Shown piece by piece: positions 1 through 62,685 of a stretch of DNA of 64,000 nucleotides (its first letter is position 1; each line of letters begins with the position of its first letter). A program made the position numbers and the translations under genes. The stretch comes from Gemmatimonadaceae bacterium (lineage in GTDB: Bacteria > Gemmatimonadota > Gemmatimonadetes > Gemmatimonadales > Gemmatimonadaceae), in the NCBI GenBank assembly GCA_036557635.1, contig DATBHD010000085.1, positions 213 to 64,212 on the forward strand, written 5' to 3'. The notes beneath the pieces are model-generated. The model worked only from the letters and a program-made list of their open reading frames with translations, did no database searches and was not told the origin of the DNA.

Positions 1-252
1 CATCACCGGCGCCTCTGGAATCGCCGGCATCGACTCCGGCGTGCCGAGCGAGAGGGTGGTGGCGAGGCGCTCGGCCATCGAGGGGATGCGCTCGTCGCGC
101 GCGGTGACCTCCGCCCTCGTTAGGCCCGTGCGCTCGGCGACGGCGTCGATCACGGCGTTGTCGAAGAGCGACCAGCCGAGCGCGCGCGCGACGCGCTCGG
201 CGATCGCCGAGCCGCCGGCGCCGTACATGCGCGAGATGGTGACGAATGGCAA
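1..252 (-). CDS. cytidylate kinase-like family protein; 3' end runs off the window
   Basis: Minus-strand frame reads LPFVTISRMYGAGGSAIAERVARALGWSLFDNAVIDAVAERTGL..., a P-loop N-terminus typical of the cytidylate-kinase-like family. TTG at 250-252 is the only nearby start. It is absent from the ORF track because it is open at the window edge. Confidence 0.55.
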   Translation of the reverse strand, partial: MPFVTISRMYGAGGSAIAERVARALGWSLFDNAVIDAVAERTGLTRAEVTARDERIPSMAERLATTLSLGTPESMPAIPEAPVM

Positions 253-291
253 AGGGCTCGGGTATTGGGAGCGAGGGGCGTCGAGATCGGA

Positions 292-888
292 CTAATCCGC
301 GAGTCCCTTTCGTCTGACCTCTTCCACGACGGCGAAGCCGGCCGCGTTCCAGGCGGCGCTGGCGTTGCCGCCGGGCACGTTGTGCAGCCGCATCTCGGTC
401 AGCCCTCGCTCCGCGCACCACGCCTCGGCGTGAGCGAGCAAGGCGGTGAGGACGCCGCGCCGCCGCGAACGCGGCCGCACGTAGACCGACGAGACGTAAC
501 AGTATCGTTCCGGGTGCAGCAGCGGCGTGTTGAACGTCTCGACGCAGCGCAGGATGCCGACGATCGCGTCCCCCGATTCGGCGAGGAGCATTGCCTCGTT
601 AGGCGCGCGGAGCTGTGCGTCGAACACGTCGCAGGCGCGCTCGCGCGCGTCGACCCGCAACTGGCCGTAGATGGGGTGGCGATCGTTCTCGCGCAGGAGC
701 GCGAGCCGAAGCTCGACGACGACGGCCAGGTCGGCGGGCGTGGCGCGCCGTACGGTGATCGCGCGTCGCGGCGCCGGTCGATCGACCGCGCCGCGCGCCG
801 CGCGGCGGGCTTCACCTAGCGCGGGGGCCATCCCGGCGCCGGATCGTGAGCCGCCGGCGTCGCGCCCGGGCTCGCTCCGGCGCGTCAT
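292..888 (-). CDS. GNAT family N-acetyltransferase
   Basis: 198-aa ORF with an acetyl-CoA binding core (VYVRPRSRRRGVLTALLAHAEAWCAERG). 4-nt stop/start overlap with the upstream gene at 885-888. The true start may be internal. Confidence 0.8.
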   Translation of the reverse strand: MTRRSEPGRDAGGSRSGAGMAPALGEARRAARGAVDRPAPRRAITVRRATPADLAVVVELRLALLRENDRHPIYGQLRVDARERACDVFDAQLRAPNEAMLLAESGDAIVGILRCVETFNTPLLHPERYCYVSSVYVRPRSRRRGVLTALLAHAEAWCAERGLTEMRLHNVPGGNASAAWNAAGFAVVEEVRRKGLAD

Positions 889-2423
889 GCCATCCCGCCT
901 CCGAAGAGATCCTGACCGGGGCGTCGGCGCGGCTCGGGCAGCGCACGCCCGTAGGCGCCGCCGTCGCTGCGCGAAATTTTCTTACGCGCGACGAGCGCCT
1001 CGAGCACGAGCTCGCAGGCCGCGACCGAGACCGGCGCATCGTCTTCGGTCGCGAGGCCGACGCGCCTAACGACCGACAGCAAGTCAGGCACGACGTCGAA
1101 GCCCTTGAGCACGGCCTCGGACCGCGCGTCGTCGGTGACTTGCAGCGCGCCCCCCTCGTCGAACCACATCACGATCTCGTCGGTGTTCACGCCGCCGGCG
1201 CGATCCTGGAACGTCGCATCCGCGGCGCGACGAATCAGCTCGCGCGCGATCGCGTTGCCGCCGACCAGTTCGCCCTCGTACTCGAGCTCGATCTTGCCGG
1301 TGATCGCCGGGAGCGCCGCGTAAATGTCGGCGACACGCGGCACGACCTCGGTCTCGCCCGTCGTGATCGCGCGCCGTTCGGCGTTCGAGATCACGTTTTC
1401 CATGACCGTGATCGGCATGCGCTGCGAAACTCCGGAGCGCTTGTCGATCCGCCGGTCGGTCCGCGCTTCGAACGCGATGCGCTCGATCATCTCGGCGACG
1501 AAGTCGGGAACACGCACCGACCGATTGTCGCGCTCCGTCCACGCCTCCTGCCGAGTGATCGTCATGCCGAGATCGACCGTCTCCGGATAGTGCGTGAGGA
1601 TCTCGCTCCCGATACGGTCCTTGAGTGGCGTGATGATCTTGCCGCGCGCCGTGTAATCCTCCGGGTTGGCGGTAAAGCACAACTGCACGTCGAGTGGCAG
1701 ACGCACCGGATACCCTTTGATCTGGACGTCGCCCTCCTGCATGACGTTGAACAATCCGACCTGCACTTTTCCAGCGAGATCGGGGAGCTCGTTGAGCGCG
1801 AAGACGCCGCGATTCGCGCGCGGCAGCATTCCGTAGTGAATCGTGAGCTCGTCGGAGAGCAGGTGGCCGCCTCGCGCCGCCTTGATCGGATCCAGATCGC
1901 CGATCAGATCCGCGATGGTCACATCCGGCGTCGCCAACTTCTCCACGTAACGATTGTCGCGGCCGACCCATGCGATCGGCGTGTCGTCCCCGGCCTGCGT
2001 GAGCAGATTGCGCGCGAACTTCGAGATCGGCGCGAAGGGATTGTCGTTGACCTCGCTCCCGGCGACGATCGGAATCGCGTCGTCGAGCAGCGTCGTGAGC
2101 GCGCGGAGAATGCGCGACTTCGCCTGACCGCGGAGACCGAGGAGAATGAAGTTGTGGCGCGACAGTATCGCATTCACGATTTGCGGCATCACGGTCTCCT
2201 CGTACCCGATCACTCCGGCGAAGAGCGGTCCGCCGTTGCACAGGCGGGCCAGCAGATTCTGACGCATTTCGTCCTTCACCGATCGCAACGCGCGCTCGGG
2301 AACACCATACGGCGAGCGCTTCAGGGCGCCGAGAGTTTCCGGAAACGACGACACGGCTTTCTCCTCAGTCGGATGAAAAACTGATTCTCCGTCAATGAAG
2401 CGCTGCGGGAGGAACGAACGCAA
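885..2423 (-). CDS. AAA+ ATPase, BchI/ChlI (Mg-chelatase subunit I)-like
   Basis: 512-aa ORF with P-loop LLGLRGQAKS, Walker B-like FALNELPDL and a long C-terminal helical region. This family is often auto-annotated as sigma54-interacting, but it has no REC or HTH domain. Confidence 0.75.
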   Translation of the reverse strand: MRSFLPQRFIDGESVFHPTEEKAVSSFPETLGALKRSPYGVPERALRSVKDEMRQNLLARLCNGGPLFAGVIGYEETVMPQIVNAILSRHNFILLGLRGQAKSRILRALTTLLDDAIPIVAGSEVNDNPFAPISKFARNLLTQAGDDTPIAWVGRDNRYVEKLATPDVTIADLIGDLDPIKAARGGHLLSDELTIHYGMLPRANRGVFALNELPDLAGKVQVGLFNVMQEGDVQIKGYPVRLPLDVQLCFTANPEDYTARGKIITPLKDRIGSEILTHYPETVDLGMTITRQEAWTERDNRSVRVPDFVAEMIERIAFEARTDRRIDKRSGVSQRMPITVMENVISNAERRAITTGETEVVPRVADIYAALPAITGKIELEYEGELVGGNAIARELIRRAADATFQDRAGGVNTDEIVMWFDEGGALQVTDDARSEAVLKGFDVVPDLLSVVRRVGLATEDDAPVSVAACELVLEALVARKKISRSDGGAYGRALPEPRRRPGQDLFGGGMA

Positions 2424-2514
2424 GCCCGAAATTGCGCAGTGCGTGTAGCCTGGAGCGCGGAGATTCGCGTAACCGTCAACGCTCCATGCTCTACGCTCGA
2501 CGCGTCGTTAGGCA

Positions 2515-4611
2515 TCAATCCGCGAGACTGACCTCGACGAGATTGTCGTAGAAAACGGGACCGTGGCCGAGGTCGGTCTCGAGCTGCGAGGTGGTCTGGT
2601 TTGCATTCGCGCCGTCGGCCGCGAACTTCCCCCACCAGATGGATGGTGCCCAGACGACACCCTCCCTGATCGAGTCCTCGATTCTCGCGACGGCCGTGAA
2701 CGCGCCGCGATCGTTCTGAACGACGACTCGAGCGCCGCTCGGAATACCGCGCTGCTCCGCATCGTGAGGATGCAACACGCACTCGGGCTCCCGCGCGGCG
2801 CGCCGCAAGGCACCGACGTTCACGAACGTCGTGTTCAGGAATTGATGCGCCGGTGACGAAATCAGAGTCAACGGATATCGCGCGGCCAGCTCCGGCACGT
2901 TCTCCGGAAACTCGTACGGGGCAGTGAACGTGGGAACGGGTTCGAGTCCCATCTGCGCCATTCGCTCCGAGTAGAATTCGCACTTTCCCGAAGGAGTCGG
3001 AAACCCTCCCTCGGCGAACGGCAAATACGGAGTCGGAACATTCAATCGCGCCCACCCGCGCTCGAGCAGCGCTTCCAGCTTGATGCCGCGGAGCTTCTCG
3101 GCATTCGTGTCGAGCGCCTGTCGAATGAGCGAGAGATCATCCTCGGCGAAGAGTGACGGTTCCAGCTTCATCCGCGACGCGAGCAAGCGGAAGATCTCGC
3201 TGTTCGGCTTCGCTTCACCCACTGGAGCGATCGACGGTTGATTGAGCGTGATGTAATGGTGGCCGTACGAAAAATGGATATCCCAGTGCTCCAGCTGAGT
3301 CGTTGCCGGAAGCACGATGTCCGCCCAATCAGCGGTGTCCGTCTGAAAATGCTCGAGTACGACGGTGAACAGGTCGTCGCGAGCCAAACCACGCAGCACC
3401 GCGTTGCGGTCCGGCGCGACGGCCGCCGGATTCGAGTTGTAAACCACTAGCGCCTTGACCGGCGGTCCACCGACACCGGCGTTCGGCGTGGTGAGCGCTT
3501 CACCGAGGCGAATCATGTTGATGGTGCGAACCGGCGGTGACAGGTCCGGACGCTCCAGTGCCTGTCTATTGAATTGGAAATTCGCGCTCGTCGAGAGCTG
3601 TACGCCGCCGCCCGGCCTTCGCCAATGTCCGGTAATGGACGGCAGACACGCGATCGTGCGCACCGCCATGCCGCCGCCGCGATGACGTTGCAGCCCGTAG
3701 TTCACGCGAATGAACGCCGCGCGCGAACGCCCATACCGCTCCGCCAAGTCGACGATCTTCGAGGACGGAATTCCGGTAATGCCGGCAACGCGCTCCGGCG
3801 AATACTCGCGCGCCCGGGCGCGCAGTGCTTCTTCGCCGAGTGTATGGCGCGCCAGATAATCTCGATCCTCGAGGCCTCGCTCGAAGAGGACGTGCATCAT
3901 GCCGAGAGCGAGCGCCGCGTCCGTGCCCGGACGAATGGCGATCCATTCGTCACATTGAGCAGCCGTGCGTGTTCGCAGTGGATCGATGGCGATGATCGGA
4001 GCGCCGCGGCTGCGTGCCTCGAGCACGAACGGCCAGAGGTGCGGATTCGACGTGAGCGTATTCGTTCCCCACAGGAGAACGAGATCACTTTCCGGAATTC
4101 CTTCGGCATCGGCGCCGACGTTGGCGCCCAGGGTCATACGCATGCCGACCGTGCCGGCCATCGAGCAGATGGTGCGGTCGAGCATCGATGCGCCGAGCAG
4201 GTGAAAGAAGCGGCGATCGAGGGACGATCCCTGCACGAGCCCCATTGTCCCCGCGTACGAATAGGGAAGGATCGCTTGGGGACCGTCTGGGGACGCCGCA
4301 ATGGCAGTCAGCCGCTCCGCGATTTCGCCGAGCGCCTCGTCCCAACTCACTCGGGCAAAGCGTCCGCTCCCTTTCGCGCCGACGCGACGCAGGGGGTGCA
4401 GCAGACGCTCAGGATGGTACGTTCGTTCGACGTAGCGGTTGACCTTCGTGCAGAGAAAACCGCGCGTAAAGGGGTGTTCGGGATCGCCGGCCACGCGAAC
4501 GGCGCGGCCGTTCTCGACCGTGACGAGCATCGAACACGTGTCGGGGCAGTCGTGCGGACACGCGCCGTGAACGACCTTGGAGTCGGCGAGGGGAAGAGAA
4601 TGGGCGGTCAT
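2515..4611 (-). CDS. molybdopterin (bis-MGD) oxidoreductase family protein
   Basis: 698-aa ORF with an N-terminal 4Fe-4S Mo/W-bis-MGD motif (CPHDCPDTC...C). Length and C-terminal molybdopterin dinucleotide-binding region are typical of the family. Confidence 0.85.
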   Translation of the reverse strand: MTAHSLPLADSKVVHGACPHDCPDTCSMLVTVENGRAVRVAGDPEHPFTRGFLCTKVNRYVERTYHPERLLHPLRRVGAKGSGRFARVSWDEALGEIAERLTAIAASPDGPQAILPYSYAGTMGLVQGSSLDRRFFHLLGASMLDRTICSMAGTVGMRMTLGANVGADAEGIPESDLVLLWGTNTLTSNPHLWPFVLEARSRGAPIIAIDPLRTRTAAQCDEWIAIRPGTDAALALGMMHVLFERGLEDRDYLARHTLGEEALRARAREYSPERVAGITGIPSSKIVDLAERYGRSRAAFIRVNYGLQRHRGGGMAVRTIACLPSITGHWRRPGGGVQLSTSANFQFNRQALERPDLSPPVRTINMIRLGEALTTPNAGVGGPPVKALVVYNSNPAAVAPDRNAVLRGLARDDLFTVVLEHFQTDTADWADIVLPATTQLEHWDIHFSYGHHYITLNQPSIAPVGEAKPNSEIFRLLASRMKLEPSLFAEDDLSLIRQALDTNAEKLRGIKLEALLERGWARLNVPTPYLPFAEGGFPTPSGKCEFYSERMAQMGLEPVPTFTAPYEFPENVPELAARYPLTLISSPAHQFLNTTFVNVGALRRAAREPECVLHPHDAEQRGIPSGARVVVQNDRGAFTAVARIEDSIREGVVWAPSIWWGKFAADGANANQTTSQLETDLGHGPVFYDNLVEVSLAD

Positions 4612-5169: not shown

Positions 5170-5184
5170 GTCGTGTGCGCTTGC

Positions 5185-6234
5185 CTAACGAGAGTGGTCT
5201 TTCCACCAGCGAAAGGCGCCGGCGACGCCGACCTCGGGGCGAAGTTGTGGGTTCCAGCCGAGCTCGCGGCGCGCGCGATCCGAGTTGAAGGGATTGTTCC
5301 GCGCCATGAAGTCGAGGGACGCGGTGCTGACGATGCTCAACCGGCCTCCGCTGACGAATCGAACGACCTGTTTCGCGATCGCGAAACCCCCGCGCGCGAT
5401 CCCATGCGGAACGCTGACGGTGTGGATCGCGTGGCCCAATCCAGACGCGGCGAGGTCGATGAACTCGCTCCAGGTCACGTCGAAGTCGTTCGCGAGATTG
5501 TACGCCGATCCGCCGGCTCCAGCGTAGTTCGCGGCGCGCACCGCGCCGTCGGCCACGTGCGCGGCGTGCACGATGGCCATCGTCGCGCGGCCGCCATCGA
5601 TGAGCGGAGCCACGCGCAGGCGCAACGCACGCGCGATGCGCGGGACGAACTGACGGTCGCGCGGGCCGTAGATCACGTCCGGGCGCACCGCCGTCGCCCA
5701 GATGCGACCTTCGGCATGCGCTTCCATGACCAGCTCCTCCGACTCTCGCTTGCTGCGCGCGTAGTACGCGCGCTCGGGAAGAGGATCGAGCGGCGTCGTC
5801 TCGTCGACGCCGGTGGCCTTGCTCGATGCATAACGAGCCTTGGGTCCGTAGACGGCAACACTGCTCAGCTGGAGCAACCGGGCGCCGCTGCGCGCCGCGG
5901 CGGCAATCGCGTTCCGCGTTCCGTCGACATTCGGAATGCGATAGGCGTCGTAGGGATGGACGCGGCGCGCCGGCGGCGTGACGGCGGCCGCCGTATGAAA
6001 GATCACCTCGGCGCCGCGGGCGGATTCGACGACCGACGGCAGGTCGAGGATGTCACCCACGGCGAGCTCCACGTTCTGCTCGCGCAACCAGGCGACCGCG
6101 TCCCAACCTCCCTCGCGTCCAACGTCGCCGGACTGTCGCACGAGCGCTCGCACGTGCCACCCGGCGGCCGACAACTCCTCGACGATGTGCGACCCGACGA
6201 GCCCCGTCGCGCCGGTTACGAGCGCGGTCGGCAC
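5185..6234 (-). CDS. NAD-dependent epimerase/dehydratase (extended SDR) family protein
   Basis: 349 aa with an N-terminal Rossmann motif VTGATGLVGSHIV. The TAG stop lies inside a copy of the 8-mer motif. Confidence 0.85.
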   Translation of the reverse strand: MPTALVTGATGLVGSHIVEELSAAGWHVRALVRQSGDVGREGGWDAVAWLREQNVELAVGDILDLPSVVESARGAEVIFHTAAAVTPPARRVHPYDAYRIPNVDGTRNAIAAAARSGARLLQLSSVAVYGPKARYASSKATGVDETTPLDPLPERAYYARSKRESEELVMEAHAEGRIWATAVRPDVIYGPRDRQFVPRIARALRLRVAPLIDGGRATMAIVHAAHVADGAVRAANYAGAGGSAYNLANDFDVTWSEFIDLAASGLGHAIHTVSVPHGIARGGFAIAKQVVRFVSGGRLSIVSTASLDFMARNNPFNSDRARRELGWNPQLRPEVGVAGAFRWWKDHSR

Positions 6235-6240
6235 TCCGCG

Positions 6241-7314
6241 TTAGGCAGGGAAGGGAAGTTGGGCGACGTCGACGCGCGTCTCACCACTCTCCGAACGAGC
6301 CGTCAACGTCGTTCCAGGCTCGATCTCGCGCCGCACCATCCCAATCGCGATGCCGCCAAGGCGCGGCGAGGCCGCGGTGCTCCGTACATCGCCGACATTC
6401 TTCCCCGCCGCGTCGAACAGCGCTGCCAGCCGCTCCGGCGGCTCCGGACCCGCCGCCCGCAGCCCGCGCAGATTCCTATTGACGTGACCGCGGAAGTGAA
6501 CGCGCGCAACCGTCTCCTGTCCCGTGTAGCAGCCCTTGGTGTACGAGATCGCGTGGAGCTCATCGAGATTCGCTTCCTGCGTCAATGTCGATTCGTCGAT
6601 GTCGACGCCCCACTCCGGCCGCCCCGCCTCGACACGCGCGATCTCCCAGGTTTCCAGGCCGGCCGGCGTTGCTTTCGCCGCGAGCGCGCGTTCCCACAGC
6701 GCGTCATACGTCTCCGCGGGCGCAAACAGCTCGAACCCCTCGAGCTCGAGGTCCGGCACCCGCGCGACGACGACGCGCGCACCGTCGATCTCGACGGCGA
6801 TGTGCGCATACGGAGGCAAGACGCCGAGCGCGGTGCTGCTCACGCCCGTCATCTCCCCGACCACAAGCCGTGCCGAAACGCCGAAGACACCCAGATCGCG
6901 CAACGTGGCGCTCTCGTCCTTGTAAGGCGCCAAGCGAGGATTCACGTACTTGCGCACGGTCGCCATCCACCCTTCACTCGCGCGCGGCGGCACATCGATC
7001 AGGAAAGAGTCATCTTCGCGAAGCAGGCGTAGATCGGCGATGATCTTTCCCTTGGGCGTCAACGCCGCCGCATACTGACCCTGGCCTGGCACGAGCGCGG
7101 TCACGTCGTTCGTCACGAGACCGGTCAGCATCTCGGCCGCGCTCGCGCCCGACATGCGCATGCGGCCACGATGACTCCGGTCGATCACGATGGCGTTGTG
7201 GCGCAGCGCCTCGTACTCGGTCGCGACGCCGGCGTACGAGAGAACGACACTTCGCCCCCCGATTTCGCCGACTGTCGATGGCTCGGCGCGCACGGAGGAG
7301 GGATGCCCAGGCAT
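6241..7314 (-). CDS. ygfZ: folate-binding protein YgfZ / GcvT-fold aminomethyltransferase family
   Basis: 357 aa with a GcvT-like fold and the YgfZ signature KGCYTGQE. The TAA stop lies inside a copy of the 8-mer motif. Confidence 0.8.
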   Translation of the reverse strand: MPGHPSSVRAEPSTVGEIGGRSVVLSYAGVATEYEALRHNAIVIDRSHRGRMRMSGASAAEMLTGLVTNDVTALVPGQGQYAAALTPKGKIIADLRLLREDDSFLIDVPPRASEGWMATVRKYVNPRLAPYKDESATLRDLGVFGVSARLVVGEMTGVSSTALGVLPPYAHIAVEIDGARVVVARVPDLELEGFELFAPAETYDALWERALAAKATPAGLETWEIARVEAGRPEWGVDIDESTLTQEANLDELHAISYTKGCYTGQETVARVHFRGHVNRNLRGLRAAGPEPPERLAALFDAAGKNVGDVRSTAASPRLGGIAIGMVRREIEPGTTLTARSESGETRVDVAQLPFPA

Positions 7315-7468: not shown

Positions 7469-8797
7469 TCAGAGGTTCCCTAGTCGCTCGTACGATCTAT
7501 CCAGCAGCTCCACCGGATGCACGACGCGCGTGCGCAGCGATGCACGGCGCAGCCCGGCCCCAATCTGCATGAGGCATCCCGGATTTCCCGTCGCCACGAG
7601 CTCGGCATCGGTCGCGGCGATGTTGCGAAGCTTCGGAGCAAGTACGGCGTTCGATGTATCGGCCTCGATGAGATTGTAGATCCCCGCGGCGCCGCAGCAA
7701 TGCTCGGCACCGGAGAGCGGAACGAGCTCGAGCTCGGGAATCGCGCGCAACACGGCGAGCGGCGGATCGGCGATGCGCTGCGCGTGCAGGAGATGACAGG
7801 GCGCGTCGTAGGTAACCCTCACCTTCACCGCGCCGCCCGTGCGTGGACCGGCGGCGACGAGCAGCTCCGTCACGTCCCGAACCCGACTAGAGAATGCCGC
7901 GGCGCGTTCCGACCATCGCGCATCGTCGGCGAGAAGATGCGCGTACTCCTTCATCATCGCGCCACAGCCGGCGGCGTTCGCGCACACGTATTCCGCGCTC
8001 GATCGCTCGAATGCCTCGATGTTCGTGCGCGCCAGCGCGCGCGCCGCACGCAAATCACCGGCGTGCGCATGCAACGCGCCGCAGCAGCGCTGTCCCGGCG
8101 CGTCGACCATCGTGTAGCCGTTGACGACGAGCGTACGCTCGGTGGCGCGATTGGTCCGCGCGAGCAATCCCTCCATGACGCAGCCGAGGAGGAGCGCCAC
8201 GCGTCCCCGCTTGCCGTCACCACGCGCGACATACGTTCTCACGCCCGCGTCGTCTTGCGTGGACGCAAGCATCGCCATCGCGAACCCGATGCGTCCGCCC
8301 AACCGCGAAAGGAGCGCGGGAATCCGGGTCGCTCGCGCTGCTCGAGACATCGTCATCGCGATCGTGAGCACCGACTGACGCGCGAATACCCACAGAATGG
8401 CACGCGCGACGAAGGGCAACGAACGCTTCTCGGCCATCGTCGCGCGCGTCGCCTCGAGCAAATGGCCGTAGGGAACGCCCGACGGGCAAACGGTCTCGCA
8501 CGCGCGACAGCCGAGGCACCGATCGATGTGCGTCTCGAGCGATGGATCATCGAGCGCCAGACTGCCCTCGAGCGCGGAGCGCATCAGAAGAATGCGGCCG
8601 CGCGGACTGTCGTTCTCGTCTTCGAGGGCGAGATAGGTGGGACAGCTCTGCAGACAGAAGCCGCAATGCACGCACGCATCGATTCCGGCGCGCATGTTCG
8701 CGAGCGGCGTGCCGGGCAAGGCGCAGGGTGCCTGACGAGAGGGCTGCGCGGGTATCGGTTGCTCGTCGACGAGTGGTCGGGTGGGAGCGCTGCTCAC
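7469..8797 (-). CDS. glcF: glycolate oxidase iron-sulfur subunit (Fe-S / CCG-domain protein)
   Basis: Two ferredoxin-type clusters (CVHCGFCLQSCP, CLGCRACETVCP) plus Cys-rich CCG domains. I place the start at the GTG that overlaps the glcE TGA (GTGA). The ORF-track start at 8905 would overlap glcE by 112 nt. Confidence 0.8.
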   Translation of the reverse strand: MSSAPTRPLVDEQPIPAQPSRQAPCALPGTPLANMRAGIDACVHCGFCLQSCPTYLALEDENDSPRGRILLMRSALEGSLALDDPSLETHIDRCLGCRACETVCPSGVPYGHLLEATRATMAEKRSLPFVARAILWVFARQSVLTIAMTMSRAARATRIPALLSRLGGRIGFAMAMLASTQDDAGVRTYVARGDGKRGRVALLLGCVMEGLLARTNRATERTLVVNGYTMVDAPGQRCCGALHAHAGDLRAARALARTNIEAFERSSAEYVCANAAGCGAMMKEYAHLLADDARWSERAAAFSSRVRDVTELLVAAGPRTGGAVKVRVTYDAPCHLLHAQRIADPPLAVLRAIPELELVPLSGAEHCCGAAGIYNLIEADTSNAVLAPKLRNIAATDAELVATGNPGCLMQIGAGLRRASLRTRVVHPVELLDRSYERLGNL

Positions 8798-26716: not shown

Positions 26717-26736
26717 GTACGCTCTGCGCTCGGTGC

Positions 26737-36607: not shown

Positions 36608-36871
36608 ATGTCCGCACAGAGTGATCCGCGTCGCGCCTTGGCGTTGGACGTGGACCCGAAATACTACTATCGGCGCTCACTGAGCGTGCGCGAGCTCCTG
36701 CCAGCTGTGGGTGCGGCGGTCGGAGCGGCGCTCGTCACATTTTACATCGTCAAGCTGTTCATCGAGCGGACGCCCGTCGACAGCGAACGGCGTGTCGATG
36801 AGGCTCCGCGGCTCACACTGCATCGTTCGGAACGATCGTCGGCTACCGCCAGGAACGTCGGCCGGCGGTGA
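36608..36871 (+). CDS. small membrane protein upstream of the Omp85 gene
   Basis: 87 aa from an internal ATG, with one TM (LLPAVGAAVGAALVTFYIV). Stop overlaps the start of the next gene. No recognisable family. Confidence 0.45.
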   Translation: MSAQSDPRRALALDVDPKYYYRRSLSVRELLPAVGAAVGAALVTFYIVKLFIERTPVDSERRVDEAPRLTLHRSERSSATARNVGRR

Positions 36872-51024: not shown

Positions 51025-51037
51025 CGTGATCGCGATC

Positions 51038-51571: not shown

Positions 51572-51954
51572 TCCTCGGGATCGGCGTCGATATCGTCGAG
51601 ATCGACCGCATGCGGCAGATGCTCGACGTGAGCGGCGAGCGCCTCATCGACCGAATCTTCACCGACGGCGAGGCACGTTACGCCCTCGCCCGCGTGGAGC
51701 CCGCCCTCCACTTTGCGGCCAGGGCCGCGGCCAAGGAGGCGACGTACAAGGCGCTGTCGGGCAATCATCTAGCGCGCGCCGTGGGGTGGAAGGAGATCGA
51801 GGTTTGCCTGCGCGAGGACGGCGCTCCCTATCTCGTCCTTCACGGAAGGGCGCAAGAGCGAGCCACGGAGATGGGGGTGAGCCGATCGCTGGTGTCGCTG
51901 ACTCACAGCAAGAGCGCCGCTGTGGCCGTCGTCGTGCTTGAACGTGAGCCGTAG
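51568..51954 (+). CDS. acpS: holo-[acyl-carrier-protein] synthase
   Basis: VILGIGVDIVEIDRM...FAAKEATYKAL...SLTHS pattern. GTG start in a GTGA overlap. Confidence 0.85.
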   Translation: MILGIGVDIVEIDRMRQMLDVSGERLIDRIFTDGEARYALARVEPALHFAARAAAKEATYKALSGNHLARAVGWKEIEVCLREDGAPYLVLHGRAQERATEMGVSRSLVSLTHSKSAAVAVVVLEREP

Positions 51955-52003
51955 ACTTCCCAGCCTACTGACAATCGGGCAATCCCGATACATTTTATCG
52001 GCA

Positions 52004-54199
52004 ATGATTCGTGTCCTGATCCGTCGGTCTTGGCTTCTTGCCGCAGTCGCAGCCGTCGTTTGCACCTCCGCCCCCGCACGGGCGCAGGAGCACCCGGTGA
52101 AGCGAGTTGCAAACATCGTCACGGTTGCCCTGGAGGAATACGCCAAGGGCATCGACGAACATGGCCGGCTGATCTCCGCCCAGGAGTACCAGGAAGCGGT
52201 GGACTTCCTTGCCGACGCGCGACACGCCGCCGAACGACTGCCCGGAACAGGCGGAGACACGGCGCGCGTTCTGCTCGATTCCATCGTCGCCGCGATCGGC
52301 AAGAAGTTGCCGCCGAGCGAGCTCGTCGGCCTGCATCATCGGTTCGACCGTGCGTTAGGCAGCGAAGCCGCGCTCGAGTTGCCGAACGGCCCGATCGACG
52401 TCGCCGCGGGGCGAGCGATTTACGAAAAGACCTGCGCCTCCTGTCATGGCATGCGCGGGATGGGTGACGGACCGGCCGCCGCCGGGCTCAATCCAAAGCC
52501 GCCGGCGATTGGCAGCGCGAAGGAGATGCACGAGCGAAGTCCAGCGCTGCTCTACCGGATCATGTCGGTGGGCGTTGCCGGTACACCCATGGCCGGCTTC
52601 GCCAATCAGCTGACGCCGAATGAACGCTGGAACGTCGTGTCGTATCTGACGTCGCTTCGGTCGAGCACAACCGAAATCGCCGAAGGGGAGGGGCTCTTCG
52701 CGCAACGATGCACTCAGTGTCACGGAGTGCTCGGGAGCGGCGAAACCCCGCTCACGCGGACGTTGAGCCGCGTGCCTCCGGAGATTGGAGCGTTCGGCTG
52801 GCAGGCGGAGCGTTCGGACGCGCAGCTCGCCAGTGTCGTCCGCGACGGCATGGCCGGCTCACCGATGCCGCCGGCGCACGATCTCACGCCGGCGCAGGTG
52901 CAGAGCGTGGTCGCGTATCTGCGCACGCTGCCCCTGCGCGAGCGATCGACGACTACCGTCGCGTCCGCGGGTCGCGATAGCGGCGCCGATGCCGCCGCCG
53001 CAAACGCGCTCTCCCTGCTCGAGCAGTCGCTGACGGCCTACCGCGCCGGACGACTCAGCGACGCCTCCGATCGTGCCTTCGATGCCTATCTCGCCTTCGA
53101 GCCGATCGAGACGCCGGCGCGGGCGCGCGATCCGGGAGTCGTGTCGTCGATGGAGAAGCTGTTCGCCGATTTCAAGGGGGCGGTACGCGCCAATGACATC
53201 CGCGGCGCCGAGCGCGCGCGCGATGCCATCGAGGCGACGATGCCCAAGGTCGTCGACCTCACCCAAAGAACGGGAAGCGGCTCCGAAGCCTTCGTTCAGT
53301 CTTTTCTAATCATCCTGCGCGAAGGGTTCGAGGCGATCCTCGTCATCGGCGCCGTCGTCGCCTTCCTGCTCAAAACGGGTCATCGCGAGCGGCTCCGCGA
53401 CATCTGGTGGGGCGTCGCGGTCGGCCTGCTCGCGAGCGCCGTGACCGCCGTCGTTCTGAAAACGGTATTGGGCGCGATGCCGGCCAGCCGCGAGATCATC
53501 GAAGGCCTCACGCTGCTGGTTGCCGTCGCCGTGCTGTTCTCGGTGAGCTATTGGCTGATCTCGCGCGTCGAGGCGGCGAAGTGGCAGCAGTTCATCCGCG
53601 AGAAGGTGAATAACGCGCTCGCGCACGGCGGCGGAAAGGCGCTCGCGTTCGTGGCGTTCCTCGCCGTGTATCGTGAAGGCGCGGAGACCGCGCTCTTCTA
53701 TCAGGCCCTGTTCGACGAAGGGCCGCGCGTCGCGTTGCCGATCACGCTCGGGCTGGTGCTGGGCTTCGCCGCGCTCGCCGTGATTTTCGTCCTGTTCTAT
53801 CGCTACGGTGTGCGCATTCCGCTGCGCCCCTTCTTCAGTGTGACGAGCGTGCTGCTCTACTACATGGCGTTCGTCTTCATCGGGAAGGGGGTGCGCGAGT
53901 TGCAAGAAGGGAACGCGATGCCGATCACGCTCATTCCAGGCTTCCCGCACATCGAAGCGTTAGGCGTGTACCCAACCTGGCAGACCGTTCTCGCGCAGCT
54001 GCTGCTCCTGGCGCTATTTGTGTTCGCGCTCGCGAAAACGTTCTGGCCCAAACGCTCGGTGGCATTGCCAACGGTGCCACCCGACGCGAAGCCGGCGACG
54101 GATATCGCGGGAGAGTTGGCGGCGCTGCGCCAGGACAACGAGCGCCTCCGGGAACGGCTGGCCGCGCTCGAGGATTCGGTGGCCCAGGAAGCCAAATAG
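52004..54199 (+). CDS. cytochrome c (two CxxCH) fused to an FTR1-family iron permease
   Basis: Signal peptide, heme motifs CASCHG and CTQCHG, then the FTR1 motifs REGFEAILV and REGAETALF within multiple TM helices. Confidence 0.8.
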   Translation: MIRVLIRRSWLLAAVAAVVCTSAPARAQEHPVKRVANIVTVALEEYAKGIDEHGRLISAQEYQEAVDFLADARHAAERLPGTGGDTARVLLDSIVAAIGKKLPPSELVGLHHRFDRALGSEAALELPNGPIDVAAGRAIYEKTCASCHGMRGMGDGPAAAGLNPKPPAIGSAKEMHERSPALLYRIMSVGVAGTPMAGFANQLTPNERWNVVSYLTSLRSSTTEIAEGEGLFAQRCTQCHGVLGSGETPLTRTLSRVPPEIGAFGWQAERSDAQLASVVRDGMAGSPMPPAHDLTPAQVQSVVAYLRTLPLRERSTTTVASAGRDSGADAAAANALSLLEQSLTAYRAGRLSDASDRAFDAYLAFEPIETPARARDPGVVSSMEKLFADFKGAVRANDIRGAERARDAIEATMPKVVDLTQRTGSGSEAFVQSFLIILREGFEAILVIGAVVAFLLKTGHRERLRDIWWGVAVGLLASAVTAVVLKTVLGAMPASREIIEGLTLLVAVAVLFSVSYWLISRVEAAKWQQFIREKVNNALAHGGGKALAFVAFLAVYREGAETALFYQALFDEGPRVALPITLGLVLGFAALAVIFVLFYRYGVRIPLRPFFSVTSVLLYYMAFVFIGKGVRELQEGNAMPITLIPGFPHIEALGVYPTWQTVLAQLLLLALFVFALAKTFWPKRSVALPTVPPDAKPATDIAGELAALRQDNERLRERLAALEDSVAQEAK

Positions 54200-57021: not shown

Positions 57022-57597
57022 TCAGGCAGCTGGCTTGGTGGCGCCGGGCGCCTTGCCCGACGCGCCTAACAACTCGTCGAACAGCGCGCGATTGCCGGGA
57101 GAGTTCCAATCCGCGGCCGAGATCCACTTCTTGCGAATCGTACCGTCGCGATCGATGACGAAGCTCTCGGGATAGCCCGTTGTCTGGTACGAGCGCTCGA
57201 TCGCGTGCGTCGGGTCGTGCAGGATCTCGAAGGTGAGTCCGAGACTCTTCGCGTACGCGCGGATCGAGTCTTCCGGAATGTAGTCGTCGATGCTGACGGC
57301 GACGATGTGGACGCCGCGCGGTCCGTACGCTCGGTAGAGCTCCTCCATGCTTGGCATCTCGACCTTGCACGGCTCGCACCACGTCGCCCACACGTTCAGC
57401 AACACCACCTCGCCGCGATAATCGGCGAGCGTACGGGTGGCGCCGGAGGAGAGGTCCTTCGCCTTGAACGACGGCGCGGACGATCCCACGCCGACCGGAA
57501 AGAGATCGGCGGCGAAGAGCTTCACCCCAGCGAACAGGCCTCCGCCTAACGCGGCAACGACGGCTCCGACGACGATCCACTGCTGTCTCACGGTCAT
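57022..57597 (-). CDS. TlpA-family thiol:disulfide oxidoreductase (redoxin)
   Basis: N-terminal anchor and the WATWCEPC active site. Confidence 0.85.
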   Translation of the reverse strand: MTVRQQWIVVGAVVAALGGGLFAGVKLFAADLFPVGVGSSAPSFKAKDLSSGATRTLADYRGEVVLLNVWATWCEPCKVEMPSMEELYRAYGPRGVHIVAVSIDDYIPEDSIRAYAKSLGLTFEILHDPTHAIERSYQTTGYPESFVIDRDGTIRKKWISAADWNSPGNRALFDELLGASGKAPGATKPAA

Positions 57598-57623
57598 GGC
57601 TCTCTACCGCTCCTCACGCCTCG

Positions 57624-58304
57624 CTAAACGCTCACCGCGCACTGATCCCGCAGCAAGCCAATCTCGCGCTGCGGATCCTTTGCCGAGAAGATCGCATTCC
57701 CGGCGACGAAGGTGTCCGCGCCAGCGCGCCAACAATCTCCAATCGTGTCGCGCGCGATGCCACCGTCAACCTCCAACACGGCTCGACTCCCGGCCTCGGC
57801 CAGAATCCGCCGCGCGCGCCGAATCTTGTCCACCGACGCCGGAATGAATTCCTGGCCGCCAAATCCGGGGTTTACCGTCATAATCAGCAGCAGCTCCATA
57901 TCCGCCAGCACCTCAACGATACCCGTCAACGAGGTGGAAGGATTCAACGCGACGCCGGCGCGGCATCCCACCTCGCGGATTCGGGTAAGCTGGCGCTGGA
58001 GATGAGGAGACACCTCGGCGTGAATCGTGATTCCCGACGCTCCGGCCTCGGCGAACTCATCGAAGTAGCGCTCGGGCTGGACGACCATCAAGTGGCAATC
58101 GAGCGGGAGATCGGTGAGCTTCCGGACGGTCTCGATGACCTTGGTGCCGAAGGTGATGTTCGGGACGAACTGGCCGTCCATCACATCGACGTGAATCCAG
58201 TCGGCGCCTCCCGTCTCGCACATTGCGATCTCATCCGCCAACCGCGCGAAATCCGCCGACAGAATGCTCGGTGCGATGCGCGGCGCCTGTTGGTGAACGG
58301 TCAT
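57624..58304 (-). CDS. rpe: ribulose-phosphate 3-epimerase
   Basis: 226 aa; PSILSADF...HVDVMDG...H.MV motifs. Confidence 0.9.
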   Translation of the reverse strand: MTVHQQAPRIAPSILSADFARLADEIAMCETGGADWIHVDVMDGQFVPNITFGTKVIETVRKLTDLPLDCHLMVVQPERYFDEFAEAGASGITIHAEVSPHLQRQLTRIREVGCRAGVALNPSTSLTGIVEVLADMELLLIMTVNPGFGGQEFIPASVDKIRRARRILAEAGSRAVLEVDGGIARDTIGDCWRAGADTFVAGNAIFSAKDPQREIGLLRDQCAVSV

Positions 58305-59032
58305 GGCCTTCCCTCGACGCGGATGGTGATGCTGGACCCCGCGGGGACCTGCGAGCCCGCCGCCGGCGTCTGCGACACGACCATCGCGCTGCCGTCGGGT
58401 TGAGCCCCGTTAGGCAACCCCACGTCGCCGACGGTGAGACCGAGCTGCTGGAGCAGTTGCCGCGCCTGCGCGAAACTGCGACCGACCACGTCCGGCACCT
58501 GAATCGTGACCGGCCCACCGCTCAGAACGAGGCCGATGGGTCCCGGAATCGGGGTCTCTGTTCCAGGGCGCGGGCGCGTATCGATCACCTCGCCCCGCGC
58601 CGTCTGGCTGGGCTGTTCGCTGACGTCGCCCACGTCGAACCCGGCCTGATCGAGCACGCGCTCGGCGTCGGGCCGAGCCATGCCGACTACGTTGGGCACG
58701 ACTGCCATCCGCTGACCACCGCTGATCGCGAGCATCACCTTCGCGCCCGCGGCATCCTTGCTCCCGGCGGGAGGATTCTGGTCGAGCACCGTTCCCTTCG
58801 GCGCGGTCGCGTGGAAGCGCGTCTCACCCTGCTCCGCCTGGAATCCGGCTTGGGCGAGACGCTGCTGTGCCGTCGTCAGGTCGAGCCCGATCACGTTAGG
58901 CACCTTGAGATCCTGACTGACGACACCCGAAGGAAAGAAGACGAAGGCCGCGACAAGATAGGCGAGCAAGAACCCGCCGACGATCGCGATCAGATAAGGA
59001 ATGAAGCGGCGGATGACGCCGCGCCAATTCAC
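58301..59032 (-). CDS. PASTA domain-containing membrane protein (three PASTA repeats, no kinase/PBP domain)
   Basis: TM anchor followed by three repeats of the VPNVIG...A...L...GF type. GTG start in a GTGA overlap with rsmB; ATGA overlap with rpe. Confidence 0.8.
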   Translation of the reverse strand: MNWRGVIRRFIPYLIAIVGGFLLAYLVAAFVFFPSGVVSQDLKVPNVIGLDLTTAQQRLAQAGFQAEQGETRFHATAPKGTVLDQNPPAGSKDAAGAKVMLAISGGQRMAVVPNVVGMARPDAERVLDQAGFDVGDVSEQPSQTARGEVIDTRPRPGTETPIPGPIGLVLSGGPVTIQVPDVVGRSFAQARQLLQQLGLTVGDVGLPNGAQPDGSAMVVSQTPAAGSQVPAGSSITIRVEGRP

Positions 59033-60459: not shown

Positions 60460-61237
60460 AGGCGGAAAGATAGTCGGAGATGGCACGCTCGGAATCATCC
60501 GCGTCCCAGATTCCGCGAATTGCGGCGATGCCGTGCACGCCGATGCGACGGAGCGGCGCAACGTGCTGCGGTGCGATGCCGCCGATCGCGACGATCGGAA
60601 TTCCCGAATACCTCACGAGCCGCTCGAGAAGCGCGGGTCCGCTTTCTCCAGCTGCCTCGCGGTTGTCGACCTCGTTGTTCGACGCCGATTCATGGGGCGC
60701 CAAGACGTCGCTCACCACGCCCCAACTCGCGCCAGCCAGGCGTGCCGCGATTCCCTCCTCGAGCGAGTGCAGGCTCGCTCCGACCAACGGTGTCGACCGC
60801 GCGCCGCTGTTTCCGCTCCCTTCGAGCACGACCTGCACCGCGTCGGCGACGCCGAGCGATCTTGCCGTGAGTTGGACGCCGCGCGCACATACGATGACGG
60901 CGATATCGACTCGGTCGTTGACGACGAGCCAGGCGCCGGTGCGCTCCTGCTCCTCGGCCAAGGTGAGCGCCATCTCGACGAAGCGCCCCGACTCGTGCTG
61001 CGCCATGCGCGCGGCGCGCAGCTGAAGCGCTCCGCGCGAGCCCATCGCGCGCATCACGGCGCGCGCGCGCTCGATGAAATTCGGCCGGCCGAGGATCTCG
61101 TCGTTCGTGACGGCGTGGAGGACGGGGCTGAGAGTGACGACTGCCGGCGCCGGGGTTTGCACGCCTGTGGCTACGAGGCCGGCGCGGAGGAGGTTTCGAA
61201 GCGGCTGCCGGCGGTGGCGCCGCGACCGCGCGCCCAT
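60437..61237 (-). CDS. thiamine-phosphate synthase-like (ThiE/TenI family) protein
   Basis: TIM-barrel pattern with LHAVTND..., VNDRVDIA and IPIVAIGGI. The start probably lies downstream of 61237, since the track ORF overlaps the fmt end. Confidence 0.6.
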   Translation of the reverse strand: MGARSRRHRRQPLRNLLRAGLVATGVQTPAPAVVTLSPVLHAVTNDEILGRPNFIERARAVMRAMGSRGALQLRAARMAQHESGRFVEMALTLAEEQERTGAWLVVNDRVDIAVIVCARGVQLTARSLGVADAVQVVLEGSGNSGARSTPLVGASLHSLEEGIAARLAGASWGVVSDVLAPHESASNNEVDNREAAGESGPALLERLVRYSGIPIVAIGGIAPQHVAPLRRIGVHGIAAIRGIWDADDSERAISDYLSAYDSEVGR

Positions 61238-62124
61238 TCGTTAGGCGCCAGACGGCGCTTGCCCGCCGGCTGTACGACCGTTACGCGCGCGGCGCCCTCG
61301 CCGCAGGCGACGACCATGCCGTCGTCGTCGATCGACTGAATCTGACCCGGCGGCATCGTCACCCCGTGCGGCGCGAGGCGCGCCCCGAACACCTTCACCT
61401 CCGCGCCACGGAGCATCGTCACCGCACCGGGCTTGGGATCGAGCGAGCGAATCAATCGGCACACGGTCGATGCCGGCGCGTTCCAATCGATCCACGTCGC
61501 GTCGCGGTCGATCTTGCCGGCGTACGTCGCGAGCCGCTCGTCCTGCGGCTGCTCGTGCGCTTCACCCAACTCCATCGCCGACAGCGCCTCGATGAGCGTG
61601 AGCGCGCCAAGCTCGGAGAGACGAAGTGACAGCTCGCCGTACGTCTCGTCGTCGACGACCGGCGTGCGCGATTGAAGGATGATCGGACCCGCATCGAGCG
61701 CCTGGACCATCCGCATGATCGTCACCCCCGTCTCGTCGAGACCGAGACGAATCGCGGCCTGAATCGGCGCCGCGCCGCGGAGCGCGGGAAGGAGAGAGCC
61801 GTGAATGTTCACCGTACCGCGACGCGGGAGATCGATCACCGCCTCCGGCAGAATGTGACCGTACGCGACGACCACCGAGAGATCCGGCGCGAGTTTCGAC
61901 AGCTCGGCGAGAAACTCGTCGCCGCGGGGGCGCTCCGGTTGCAGAACAGGAATGCCCTCGTCCAGAGCGATCTGCTTGACTGGCGACGACTGCAGCATCG
62001 ATCGTGACCGGCCGACGGGTCGGTCAGGCTGCGTCACCGCGCCGACGACATCGAATCCCTCGCCGATGAGCGCACGCAAAGCGGGCGTGGCGAACTCCGG
62101 CGTGCCCCAGAAGAGCACGCGCAT
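61171..62124 (-). CDS. fmt: methionyl-tRNA formyltransferase
   Basis: MRVLFWGTPEFA..., HGSLLPALRGAAPI motifs. Confidence 0.9.
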   Translation of the reverse strand: MRVLFWGTPEFATPALRALIGEGFDVVGAVTQPDRPVGRSRSMLQSSPVKQIALDEGIPVLQPERPRGDEFLAELSKLAPDLSVVVAYGHILPEAVIDLPRRGTVNIHGSLLPALRGAAPIQAAIRLGLDETGVTIMRMVQALDAGPIILQSRTPVVDDETYGELSLRLSELGALTLIEALSAMELGEAHEQPQDERLATYAGKIDRDATWIDWNAPASTVCRLIRSLDPKPGAVTMLRGAEVKVFGARLAPHGVTMPPGQIQSIDDDGMVVACGEGAARVTVVQPAGKRRLAPNEWARGRGATAGSRFETSSAPAS

Positions 62125-62127
62125 TGC

Positions 62128-62685
62128 TCAGAGCTCCTCGTCCCGGTGGTGGTGCGCCGCGACTTCGGCAGCCGTTAGGCGACGGATGTTGTCCGGATAC
62201 TTGTCCTTCTCTTTCGCCCACTTGTTCATTGCCGATCGCCGCTTCAGCGCGCTCAGATAGTCGATGAAGAGCCGCCCGTGCAGGTGATCGATCTCGTGCT
62301 GCAGGCAGCGCGAGAGCAGGTCGCGTCCCTCGACCTCGAAGGGCTTGCCGTCGATGCCGACCGCGCGCACGACGACGCGCGCCGCACGCTCGACGTCACC
62401 GTAGATCTCGGGAATCGATAGGCATCCCTCTTCGCCCTTGGTTTTTCCTTCGGCTTCCAGGATTTCGGGGTTGATCAGCACGATGCGTTGGCTGTCGACG
62501 TCGATCACCGACAAGCGCTCGGATCGGCCGACCTGCGGCGCGGCGAGGCCGATTCCCTTCGCGGCGTACATCGTCTCGAACATGTCCTCGACGAGGCGGC
62601 GCAGCTCCGGCGTGACGTCGTCGACGATCCTGGTCGGCGTCCGCAGTATCGTGTCGCCGAAGACGCGGATATCCAGCAGACTCAC
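62128..62685 (-). CDS. def: peptide deformylase
   Basis: GIGLAAPQ, EGCLS and HEIDHL motifs. Confidence 0.9.
   Translation of the reverse strand: MSLLDIRVFGDTILRTPTRIVDDVTPELRRLVEDMFETMYAAKGIGLAAPQVGRSERLSVIDVDSQRIVLINPEILEAEGKTKGEEGCLSIPEIYGDVERAARVVVRAVGIDGKPFEVEGRDLLSRCLQHEIDHLHGRLFIDYLSALKRRSAMNKWAKEKDKYPDNIRRLTAAEVAAHHHRDEEL

Follow-up and report, generated by a model that had tools for sequence, protein, structure and literature searches.

An asymmetric octanucleotide enriched on both strands in soil Gemmatimonadaceae, with features of a DNA uptake sequence

Why should one octanucleotide recur about once per 1.5 kb through genes of unrelated function? The question is raised by a 64,000-nt stretch of contig DATBHD010000085.1 (positions 213 to 64,212 of the forward strand; assembly GCA_036557635.1) from a Gemmatimonadaceae bacterium, which was analysed over its whole length and is called the window here. 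In an exact search the word CGTTAGGC, or its complement GCCTAACG, was found 43 times; the + strand carries 23 of the copies and the − strand the other 20. An earlier note, made from the letters alone, had listed these copies, and every coordinate, reading frame and orientation count that it gave was correct. The word may serve in natural transformation by labelling DNA as conspecific, like the DNA uptake sequence (DUS) of Neisseriaceae and the uptake signal sequence (USS) of Pasteurellaceae. We put this at just short of an even chance, and rank it first because the density, strand symmetry, spacing, dialects, core and stop-blocked frame of the word match those of DUS and USS.

The enrichment was measured against several null models. 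In 100 dinucleotide-preserving shuffles the mean number of copies was 1.04 (standard deviation 0.96, maximum 4), and Markov models of orders 0, 1, 2 and 3 predicted 2.46, 1.04, 0.73 and 2.17 copies respectively. The word is therefore enriched 17- to ~60-fold, depending on the null, and is the most enriched 8-mer of the whole window. Markov models of orders 4–6 predicted 18–43 copies (18 at order 4 and 40 at order 5) and were set aside because the argument would be circular: the 5- to 7-mers that make up the word are nearly absent elsewhere, and the full word accounts for 43 of the 52 GTTAGG hexamers in the window. The comparison with third- to fifth-order models that had been proposed for this DNA was thus informative at order 3 only. 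A codon-aware null, proposed at the same time, was based on a set of 55 coding sequences (CDS; ~91% of the window) supported by Pfam checks. In 300 synonymous-codon shuffles, in which every protein and the codon usage were preserved, the mean was 2.8 copies when codons were shuffled within genes and 2.3 when they were shuffled across genes, with a maximum of 7; these totals include three unshuffled sites. Six contigs of the same species from independent assemblies (JGI and Logan; 99.84–99.98% identical to the window) have identical sites, which excludes an assembly artefact. Each of these contigs had 1–8 differing positions, none of them within a site and too few in all to inform on polymorphism.

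The word lies wholly within CDS in 40 of 43 cases (93%), 21 in the sense and 19 in the antisense direction, exactly as had been claimed. Sixteen of these copies are read as xCG-TTA-GGC (Leu-Gly), five as GTT-AGG (Val-Arg), 11 as CTA-ACG (Leu-Thr) and eight as CCT-AAC (Pro-Asn), the same division as in the earlier hand reading. The word was said to be built from rare codons, and in the window genes it does take in 16 of 23 TTA codons and 11 of 43 CTA codons. With 70% of the TTA codons in these genes due only to the word, selection at the DNA level clearly overrides codon usage here. Among the peptide contexts able to encode the word synonymously, 14–42% do so: 16 of 80 for [SPTA]-L-G, 11 of 34 for [SCRG]-L-T, 5 of 37 for V-R-[LPHQR] and 8 of 19 for P-N-[VADEG].

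The three copies outside CDS are all at gene ends. The copy at 5183–5190 (−) provides the TAG stop codon of an NAD-dependent epimerase gene (5185–6234, −), and the complement of the copy at 6239–6246 (+) provides the TAA stop codon of a GcvT-like gene (6241–7314, −). The third, at 2506–2513 (+), is intergenic, 1 nt past the stop codon of a molybdopterin oxidoreductase gene (2515–4611, −). Since both copies in stop-containing frames form gene stops, these two frames are used solely at the ends of genes. Pausing of translation at rare codons, of the bldA/TTA type of Streptomyces, was ruled out by the fact that half of the copies are antisense, and a signal in mRNA or translation is rejected more generally because the word is symmetric with respect to both the coding strand (21:19) and the window (23:20). 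What the force acts on is the word in double-stranded DNA, rather than proteins or mRNA, and rare codons and some residue changes are tolerated or imposed by it.

Alignment with relatives revealed how the sites arose. They differ from the sequence of the relatives by two or three clustered substitutions, with few or no insertions or deletions. The copy at 25638–25645 (−), in the sense direction of thrA (24009–26510, −), is specific to the window and is read as Leu-Gly; here three clustered substitutions have changed GCCCGGCG of the relatives to GCCTAACG at a poorly conserved residue (Pro in 21 and Ala in 14 of 53 word-free orthologues). The copy at 23491–23498 (−), also sense and Leu-Gly, in thrC (22732–23940, −), has GCCTAACG in place of GCCGAGCG, a synonymous recoding of the CTC (Leu) codon of word-free relatives; it is exact in one carrier locus (L010) and one base off in three others (L008, L009 and L067). 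Many sites are synonymous recodings of this kind to rare codons (CTC to TTA, CTG to CTA), and at others a poorly conserved residue has been replaced beside an invariant Leu, Pro, Ser or Gly.

Once formed, sites are shared between carriers more often than expected. Window sites were exactly conserved in 34 of 78 orthologous comparisons with carriers that are ~75% identical in DNA, where 11 were expected from background 8-mers, and in 0 of 12 comparisons with word-free relatives. The force on the sites is thus directional and still acting, whether by retention or by convergent gain. The earlier note had suggested aligning orthologues to see whether sites arise by synonymous or conservative changes and are kept in position; the changes proved to be synonymous or at poorly conserved residues, and sites are shared at about three times background. 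Its simplest reading, selection on the DNA word itself, is strongly supported by the codon-aware null, the coding-strand symmetry, the recoding to rare codons and this threefold sharing.

One-base variants of the word were over-represented only at positions 1 and 8 and as CGTTATGC (for example CGTTAGGT, 13 observed against 1.1 expected), and no enrichment was found for variants at positions 2–5. Nine copies of the GTTAGG core alone were found where they had been reported. These variants show the pattern of a recognition core, in which GTTAGG is strict and the outer positions 1 and 8 are softer.

A dispersed repeat of the repetitive extragenic palindrome or miniature inverted-repeat transposable element type was ruled out: conservation extends over no more than 9–10 nt, 93% of copies are in CDS and in frame, and nearly all sites arose by substitution. 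A mobile repeat is rejected because the flanks are not conserved and the sites arise by substitution. In a check for depletion of the word in mobile or foreign DNA, no mobile-element genes turned up in the annotated parts of the carrier DNA. Another explanation is a by-product without function, in which mutation or repair with a bias particular to the lineage, or gene conversion with a bias, would turn near-cognate sequences into the word. Such drive requires no organism-level benefit, and the gain or loss of a single enzyme would account for the abrupt presence and absence of the word among close relatives described below. We nevertheless regard it as very improbable. The sites differ from the ancestral sequence at two or three positions, the inner one-base neighbours are neither depleted, as repair substrates would be, nor enriched, and the short-range repulsion between copies is unexpected from context-driven mutation. 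We know of no repair bias that gives a 40-fold enrichment of an 8-mer.

The copies are spaced more evenly than by chance. Gaps in the window have a mean of 1478 nt and range from 192 to 4635 nt, in agreement with the 192 nt to ~4.6 kb reported before. The closest pair is 192 bp apart (P = 0.004 under random placement), and gap lengths vary less than under random placement (coefficient of variation 0.78 against 0.98; P = 0.05). When carrier loci were pooled, two gaps of less than 200 nt were found against 11.6 expected, the loci sharing orthologous sites and so not being independent. Short-range repulsion of this kind fits a benefit per DNA segment. The force gains little from a second copy within ~200 bp.

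Even spacing also bears on the possibility that the word is bound by a chromosome-organising or nucleoid-associated protein specific to the lineage and forms a dense array of its sites, with about one site per 1–2 kb kept by selection for compaction, segregation or replication and repair. Even spacing, short-range exclusion, strand symmetry and the maintenance of positions would all fit a structural role, and Karlin proposed such a reading for USS from its even spacing, as cited in PMC1939737. An essential architectural system would, however, be odd in a lineage whose closest relative on ThrA and ThrC, locus L007, has neither the word nor a replacement. The sites of matS, Noc, SlmA and parS number tens per genome and are palindromic, and no nucleoid protein known to us uses thousands of exact asymmetric 8-mers. 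We consider a binding array improbable.

Orientation is balanced throughout the window and does not depend on gene direction, with ratios of 23:20 overall, 9:9 in 0–27 kb and 10:10 in 28–54 kb. Because strand bias is absent in the window, a polar motif of the Chi or FtsK-orienting polar sequence (KOPS) type is rejected, and the earlier argument against such polarity stands within this stretch. A non-polar variant would be a 'self' tag resembling Chi, by which a nuclease of recombination or defence (of the RecBCD, AddAB or AdnAB type, or a newer one) would be kept from degrading resident DNA or directed in its repair. Chi sites are 5–8 nt long, asymmetric, lineage-specific, enriched in core genes under codon-aware nulls and variable between taxa, and the on/off pattern among relatives could follow the specificity of a nuclease. 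Even so, co-orientation of ~75%, as in E. coli, would give roughly 32:11 rather than 23:20. Chi words are also only few-fold enriched and made of common codons, in contrast to the 17- to ~60-fold enrichment of CGTTAGGC from the rarest codons, and the word is denser than any 7–8 nt Chi that we know of. We give this explanation very little weight.

No inverted pairs of the word were found among the 43 window copies. In the related locus L011 two copies of a one-base variant of the word, CGTCAGGC, overlap head to head at 6718–6731, giving a palindrome of 14 nt, CGTCAGGCCTGACG. No other inverted pair was seen, and this one recalls the dyad-symmetric DUS pairs of Neisseriaceae.

To follow the word beyond the window, relatives were gathered with the ThrA protein of the window in a collection of one genome per species (80 loci) and with its TamB-like protein (nine metagenome contigs, L087–L095). 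All of the ThrA relatives are metagenome-assembled genomes (MAGs), and the closest, at 64–80% identity, are soil Gemmatimonadaceae. Seven of the 80 loci (L008, L009, L010, L011, L012, L014 and L067) contained 4–10 copies per 10 kb, and each of the remaining loci 0–1 copy in up to 22.6 kb. The nine contigs found with the TamB-like protein share ~75–78% DNA identity with the window. Eight (L087–L093 and L095) contained 2.6–8.6 copies per 10 kb and the ninth (L094, 4 kb) none. In the pooled window-type DNA of relatives (208 kb, from independent assemblies) CGTTAGGC was observed 116 times against 2.45 expected. In 69 other loci (1.05 Mb, mostly Gemmatimonadota and with L007 among them) it was observed five times against 9.8 expected. 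The enrichment was found in several unrelated neighbourhoods and in 4 kb of L001, from the window's own species, beyond the window, and is therefore genome-wide in carriers; the word is specific to a lineage. An observed-to-expected ratio near 1, or an enrichment limited to the window, had been named at the outset as fatal to selection on the word, and neither was found. A word-free stretch of 5.3 kb at the start of L009 is taken to be a chance gap because its genes, for pyrimidine biosynthesis and other functions, are housekeeping genes. Other strongly enriched words in other loci were considered as possible dispersed words and rejected, being heptamer tandem arrays or a short repeated element.

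Among the carriers the word exists in dialects. In L011, L012 and L014 (31 kb), CGTTAGGC (24 observed, 0.42 expected) is joined by CGTCAGGC (25 observed, 2.97 expected), which elsewhere is at background level; CGTYAGGC is the dialect of this sister group. The T and C versions were found at the same orthologous position in different genomes, and the choice between them follows the residue: TCA is used at invariant Ser and TTA at invariant Leu, GAC at conserved Asp and AAC at variable positions. The specificity of the force drifts by single bases. Flanking preferences vary as well. Within 15 nt on either side of the 43 window copies, the base before the word was T in 21 cases, close to the half estimated in the earlier note, and the base after it was a purine in 30. 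In L090, 10 of 12 copies have T in front, as TCGTTAGGC, and in L087 seven of eight do; A followed the word in eight of 11 copies in L009, as CGTTAGGCA; and G preceded it in eight of 15 copies in L011, as GCGTTAGGC.

The presence of the word changes abruptly between close relatives. On a bootstrapped neighbour-joining tree of ThrA and ThrC, encoded by two adjacent genes, L007, with no copies in 22.5 kb, was sister to the window (97% bootstrap), and the CGTYAGGC group was sister to the word-free loci L013, L015 and L017 (100% support). No replacement word of 7–10 nt was found in the word-free loci L007, L013, L015–L018 and L020. The force is on in some lineages and off in their close relatives. 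The tree suggests either one gain and at least two losses or several gains, a history that is provisional because it rests on two adjacent genes.

The alternation of T and C at position 4 in the sister group is the change expected from deamination of 5-methylcytosine, and the word could be, or contain, the target of a lineage-specific DNA methyltransferase, either an orphan or an enzyme of Type IIG or bacteriophage exclusion (BREX)-like type. It would then accumulate through methylation-linked repair bias or selection, as has been proposed for the cyanobacterial octamer GCGATCGC, the highly iterated palindrome HIP1, whose scale and behaviour match those of the word; a link to transformation would be possible and not required. 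The complement CCTAAC has A at position 5 of 6, as do many targets of MmeI-family and BREX enzymes. We consider this explanation unlikely. The word is not palindromic and the HIPs described so far all are; new sites need two or three substitutions over the central TTA, so that a single repair-directed change would be insufficient; and restriction–modification targets are normally avoided or neutral rather than 40-fold enriched. No methyltransferase gene was seen among the annotated genes of the window, and neither GTTAGG nor CCTAAC was found as a methylation motif in the searched literature.

If the word is instead an uptake tag, a sequence-specific component of the transformation machinery would prefer DNA fragments carrying CGTTAGGC, and conspecific DNA would then be taken up and recombined preferentially. 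Alleles that gain a copy would be over-transmitted (molecular drive), and copies would build up where coding sequence permits, to ~1 per 1.5 kb. We infer that the reader of the word would be an uptake or transformation component and that these bacteria would be naturally competent. The resemblance to DUS and USS suggested in the earlier note is strengthened by the lineage restriction, the one-base dialect, the flank preferences, the on/off pattern and the repulsion between sites; uptake itself is proposed by analogy only.

Several observations weigh against an uptake tag. Genes for comEA, comEC, dprA, pilQ and minor pilins were not found in the DNA read, which comprised the window and the fetched loci and not whole genomes. 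No uptake, binding or transformation data for any member of the Gemmatimonadota were found in the searched literature. The word is built from the rarest codons, unlike known uptake sequences, 93% of its copies are in CDS, and none of its copies in the window are paired as inverted repeats. Flanks like those of USS, AT-rich and helically phased, were not seen within 15 nt of the 43 copies. The excess sharing of sites may come in part from convergent gains at the few permissive positions, and the history of gain and loss is drawn from a tree of only two adjacent genes. The sole pilin of the window also has a homologue in the word-free locus L020.

That pilin (26737–27156, −), which the earlier note had brought forward in support of uptake, offers little. 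It is an ordinary PilA-like type IV major pilin; the solved structures closest to it are those of major pilins, and its structure matches did not include ComP. As a candidate receptor, with a homologue in a word-free relative, it gives evidence neither way. Its gene has a GC content of 0.50 at first codon positions, compared with ~0.70 elsewhere, and lies in the longest word-free stretch of the window (25646–30272), a gap within chance; both features would fit a pilin gene that evolves fast or is exchanged. The searchable literature, which is thin in subscription journals, yielded neither a report of this word nor one of an uptake-like sequence in Gemmatimonadota, and nothing relevant on competence, k-mers or methylation in that phylum. 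The 8-mer stands in 475 papers; the matches listed are primers, constructs or the nematode telomere repeat TTAGGC, and in none is it a bacterial motif.

The remaining copies are distributed over the window as follows, with the position and strand of the word given first and those of the gene in brackets. At the left end, the copy at 118–125 (+) is antisense in a partial gene (4–252, −), where the CTA-ACG frame is read as G-L-T-R; that at 597–604 (+) is antisense in a GNAT acetyltransferase gene (292–888, −) in the CCT-AAC frame (Pro-Asn); and that at 1064–1071 (−) is sense in the gene at 885–2423 (−) in the GTT-AGG frame (Val-Arg). A FAD-binding, GlcE-like gene (8794–9999, −) has a sense copy at 9252–9259 (−; Val-Arg), and a FAD-linked oxidase gene of GlcD-like type (9954–11435, −) an antisense copy at 11109–11116 (+; Leu-Thr). 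Five copies fall in a single gene with GH18, deacetylase and GT2 domains (13027–16530, −): antisense at 13413–13420 (+; Pro-Asn), 14830–14837 (+; Leu-Thr) and 15226–15233 (+; Leu-Thr), and sense at 14359–14366 (−; Leu-Gly) and 16344–16351 (−; Val-Arg). A 3D-domain gene (18112–18702, −) follows with a sense copy at 18655–18662 (−; Leu-Gly). The antisense copy at 22408–22415 (−; Leu-Thr), in a pyridine-nucleotide disulphide oxidoreductase gene (21621–22643, +), is conserved in L008, L088 and L090. A second copy in thrC, at 23842–23849 (+), is antisense and read as Leu-Thr, with CTA where L007 has CTG.

Four copies lie in a MacB/FtsX-type permease gene (29927–32656, +), sense at 30273–30280 (+) and 31239–31246 (+), both Leu-Gly, and antisense at 31431–31438 (−; Leu-Thr) and 31957–31964 (−; Pro-Asn). 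The next three are sense and Leu-Gly: 33116–33123 (−) in a DUF2071 gene (32642–33421, −), and 34152–34159 (−) and 34353–34360 (−) in an ABC permease gene (33834–34751, −). Both copies in the permease gene are conserved in L087 and L090, and the second is one base off in L088. An Omp85/BamA-like gene (36868–39177, +) has an antisense copy at 37271–37278 (−; Leu-Thr), conserved in L087, L088 and L095. The TamB-like gene (39217–43869, +) has five, all with conserved counterparts: sense at 40838–40845 (+; Leu-Gly; L087, L090 and L093), 41082–41089 (+; Val-Arg; L088) and 43703–43710 (+; Leu-Gly; L088 and L091), and antisense at 41801–41808 (−; Leu-Thr; L089, L090, L091 and L093) and 42359–42366 (−; Leu-Thr; L087 and L092).

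Conserved copies continue to the right of this gene. The sense copy at 44987–44994 (+; Val-Arg), in a sigma-54 response-regulator gene (44868–46235, +), is conserved in L091 and L092. A peptidase S58 gene (46440–47438, +) carries an antisense copy at 46838–46845 (−; Pro-Asn), conserved in L090, and a sense copy at 47188–47195 (+; Leu-Gly), conserved in L088, L090 and L091. The sense copy at 47724–47731 (+; Leu-Gly) in an NlpC/P60 gene (47501–48250, +) is conserved in L088 and L090, as is that at 52353–52360 (+; Leu-Gly) in a cytochrome c/FTR1 gene (51938–54199, +), which has a second sense copy at 53958–53965 (+; Leu-Gly). Between them, the antisense copy at 51112–51119 (−; Pro-Asn) in the gene at 50993–51571 (+) is conserved in L090. 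The last five copies are one in the sense direction of a redoxin-type gene (57022–57597, −), at 57544–57551 (−; Leu-Gly), and four antisense: 58408–58415 (+) and 58894–58901 (+), both Pro-Asn, in a PASTA-domain gene (58301–59032, −); 61239–61246 (+; Pro-Asn) in fmt (61171–62124, −); and 62173–62180 (+; Leu-Thr) in def (62128–62685, −).

Other repeats were seen in the same DNA. The palindrome TTCCGGAA, the most enriched window 8-mer after words derived from CGTTAGGC, occurs seven times in the window (at 2337, 4090, 11945, 16824, 21730, 57271 and 63472) against 0.76 expected from shuffles; when loci were pooled, it was found 12 times in window-type DNA (2.5 expected) and 21 times in other loci (16.6 expected). 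Possibly it represents a further lineage-specific word of lesser strength, such as a palindromic target of methylation or binding. Heptamer tandem arrays recur across different Gemmatimonadota loci: (ACCCTCT)n in the window's own species (L001, 24–135, ~4 kb beyond the right end of the window), (GGCGAGA)n in L019 (159–190 and 8730–8760) and (GGGAGAC)n in L042 (14698–14760). In a word-free Gemmatimonadales MAG (L054), a repeat of ~30 nt, AGAACGGAAgGTTCg.CCGGA, is present in both orientations in two clusters (9569–9870 and 18555–18890) and looks like a small repeat of the repetitive extragenic palindrome type. The palindrome CGACGTCG is ~4- to 7-fold over a second-order Markov expectation in several Acidobacteriota and Thermoanaerobaculia loci (L038, L051, L056 and L079), for instance with 24 copies against 5.9 expected in L038, both strands counted; this may be a separate lineage-specific palindrome effect.

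To our knowledge, sequence-specific DNA uptake is firmly established in only two proteobacterial families, both host-associated, and whether uptake words exist elsewhere, and why such words evolve, are long-standing questions. The word described here would possibly belong to a DNA-uptake-sequence system that evolved independently of the other two, the third of its kind and the first to lie outside Proteobacteria, in abundant uncultured soil Gemmatimonadaceae, a claim that we make with rather less than even confidence. If the uptake reading is true, the system would have been gained, retuned and lost among close relatives, and sequence-biased natural transformation could be measured in soil populations directly from metagenomes. 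If the reader of the word is not uptake machinery, the word would be a genome-wide tag of a new kind, and of no less importance. Carriers and non-carriers among close relatives offer a natural comparison for finding the word-reading gene by phyletic profiling, and the word is a marker for recombination and self-recognition in soil metagenomes.

Among known systems, Chi, KOPS and other architecture-imparting 8-mers are likewise asymmetric, lineage-specific and over-represented in core genes. They are strongly co-oriented with replication and modestly enriched, in contrast to the balanced orientation and high enrichment of the word.

The word resembles the DUS of Neisseriaceae, which also occurs about once per 1–1.5 kb without orientation bias, has single-base dialects and a strict core with soft edges, and has one reading frame blocked by a stop codon. 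N. gonorrhoeae has 1965 copies in 2.15 Mb, and H. influenzae 1471 copies of USS in 1.83 Mb, neither with orientation bias; both sequences accumulate by point mutation, in a process termed 'molecular drive' (PMC1939737). The DUS GCCGTCTGAA exists in eight dialects that follow phylogeny and is bound by the minor pilin ComP, and Simonsiella has two dialects, one base apart, in a single genome (Frye et al. 2013, PMC3630211). These two dialects widen the range of encodable residues, and CGTYAGGC does likewise with Leu/Ser and Asn/Asp. The word differs from DUS in its length (8 rather than 10–12 nt), its unrelated sequence and its phylum. DUS was first proposed to be a transcription terminator (PMC1939737), and only 34.5% of its copies in N. 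meningitidis are in open reading frames (PMC2817400), compared with 93% of copies in CDS and no terminator-like inverted pairs in the window for the word. The word is also built from the rarest codons and is wholly missing from close relatives.

USS, with the core AAGTGCGGT or ACAAGCGGT, resembles the word in density, in being mostly intragenic, strand-symmetric and more evenly spaced than random, and in having two lineage types and sites at poorly conserved residues. Its even spacing was described by Karlin, as cited in PMC1939737. USS copies are inside genes in 65% of cases, occupy residues of low conservation and make the peptides that they encode more frequent (PMC2817400, PMC1939737), and coding sites of known uptake sequences tend toward preferred codons (Findlay & Redfield 2009, PMC2817400). 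The frames of USS thus follow preferred codons, as those of the word do not, and in place of AT-rich phased flanks the word has only T before it and a purine after it.

HIP1 is an octamer present about once per kb, 15- to 300-fold over-represented in coding and non-coding DNA, with a function that was long obscure and is now argued to relate to transformation (10.64898/2026.06.24.733823; PMC5861425; PMC4390886). It spreads by substitution and not insertion, is conserved beyond expectation, is non-randomly spaced and patchy and has been lost or replaced in some lineages; all described HIPs are palindromic, and HIP1 is recognised by the methyltransferases DmtA and DmtC (10.64898/2026.06.24.733823). 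The word is likewise an over-represented, substitution-borne and conserved octamer with an uneven distribution among lineages, and differs from HIP1 in being asymmetric, CGTTAGGC not being equal to GCCTAACG.

The word is not placed in the DUS or USS families because their sequence-specific features fail: it has no relation to GCCGTCTGAA, no invariant CTG core and no frequent inverted pairs, and neither the 9-nt core nor the helically phased AT-rich flanks of USS. It shares with them as a class a density of about 1 per kb in the DNA read (43 in 64 kb; 116 in 208 kb), equal use of the two strands, and restriction to a clade with sister dialects, and it belongs among the hyper-abundant, strand-symmetric, lineage-specific genomic words.

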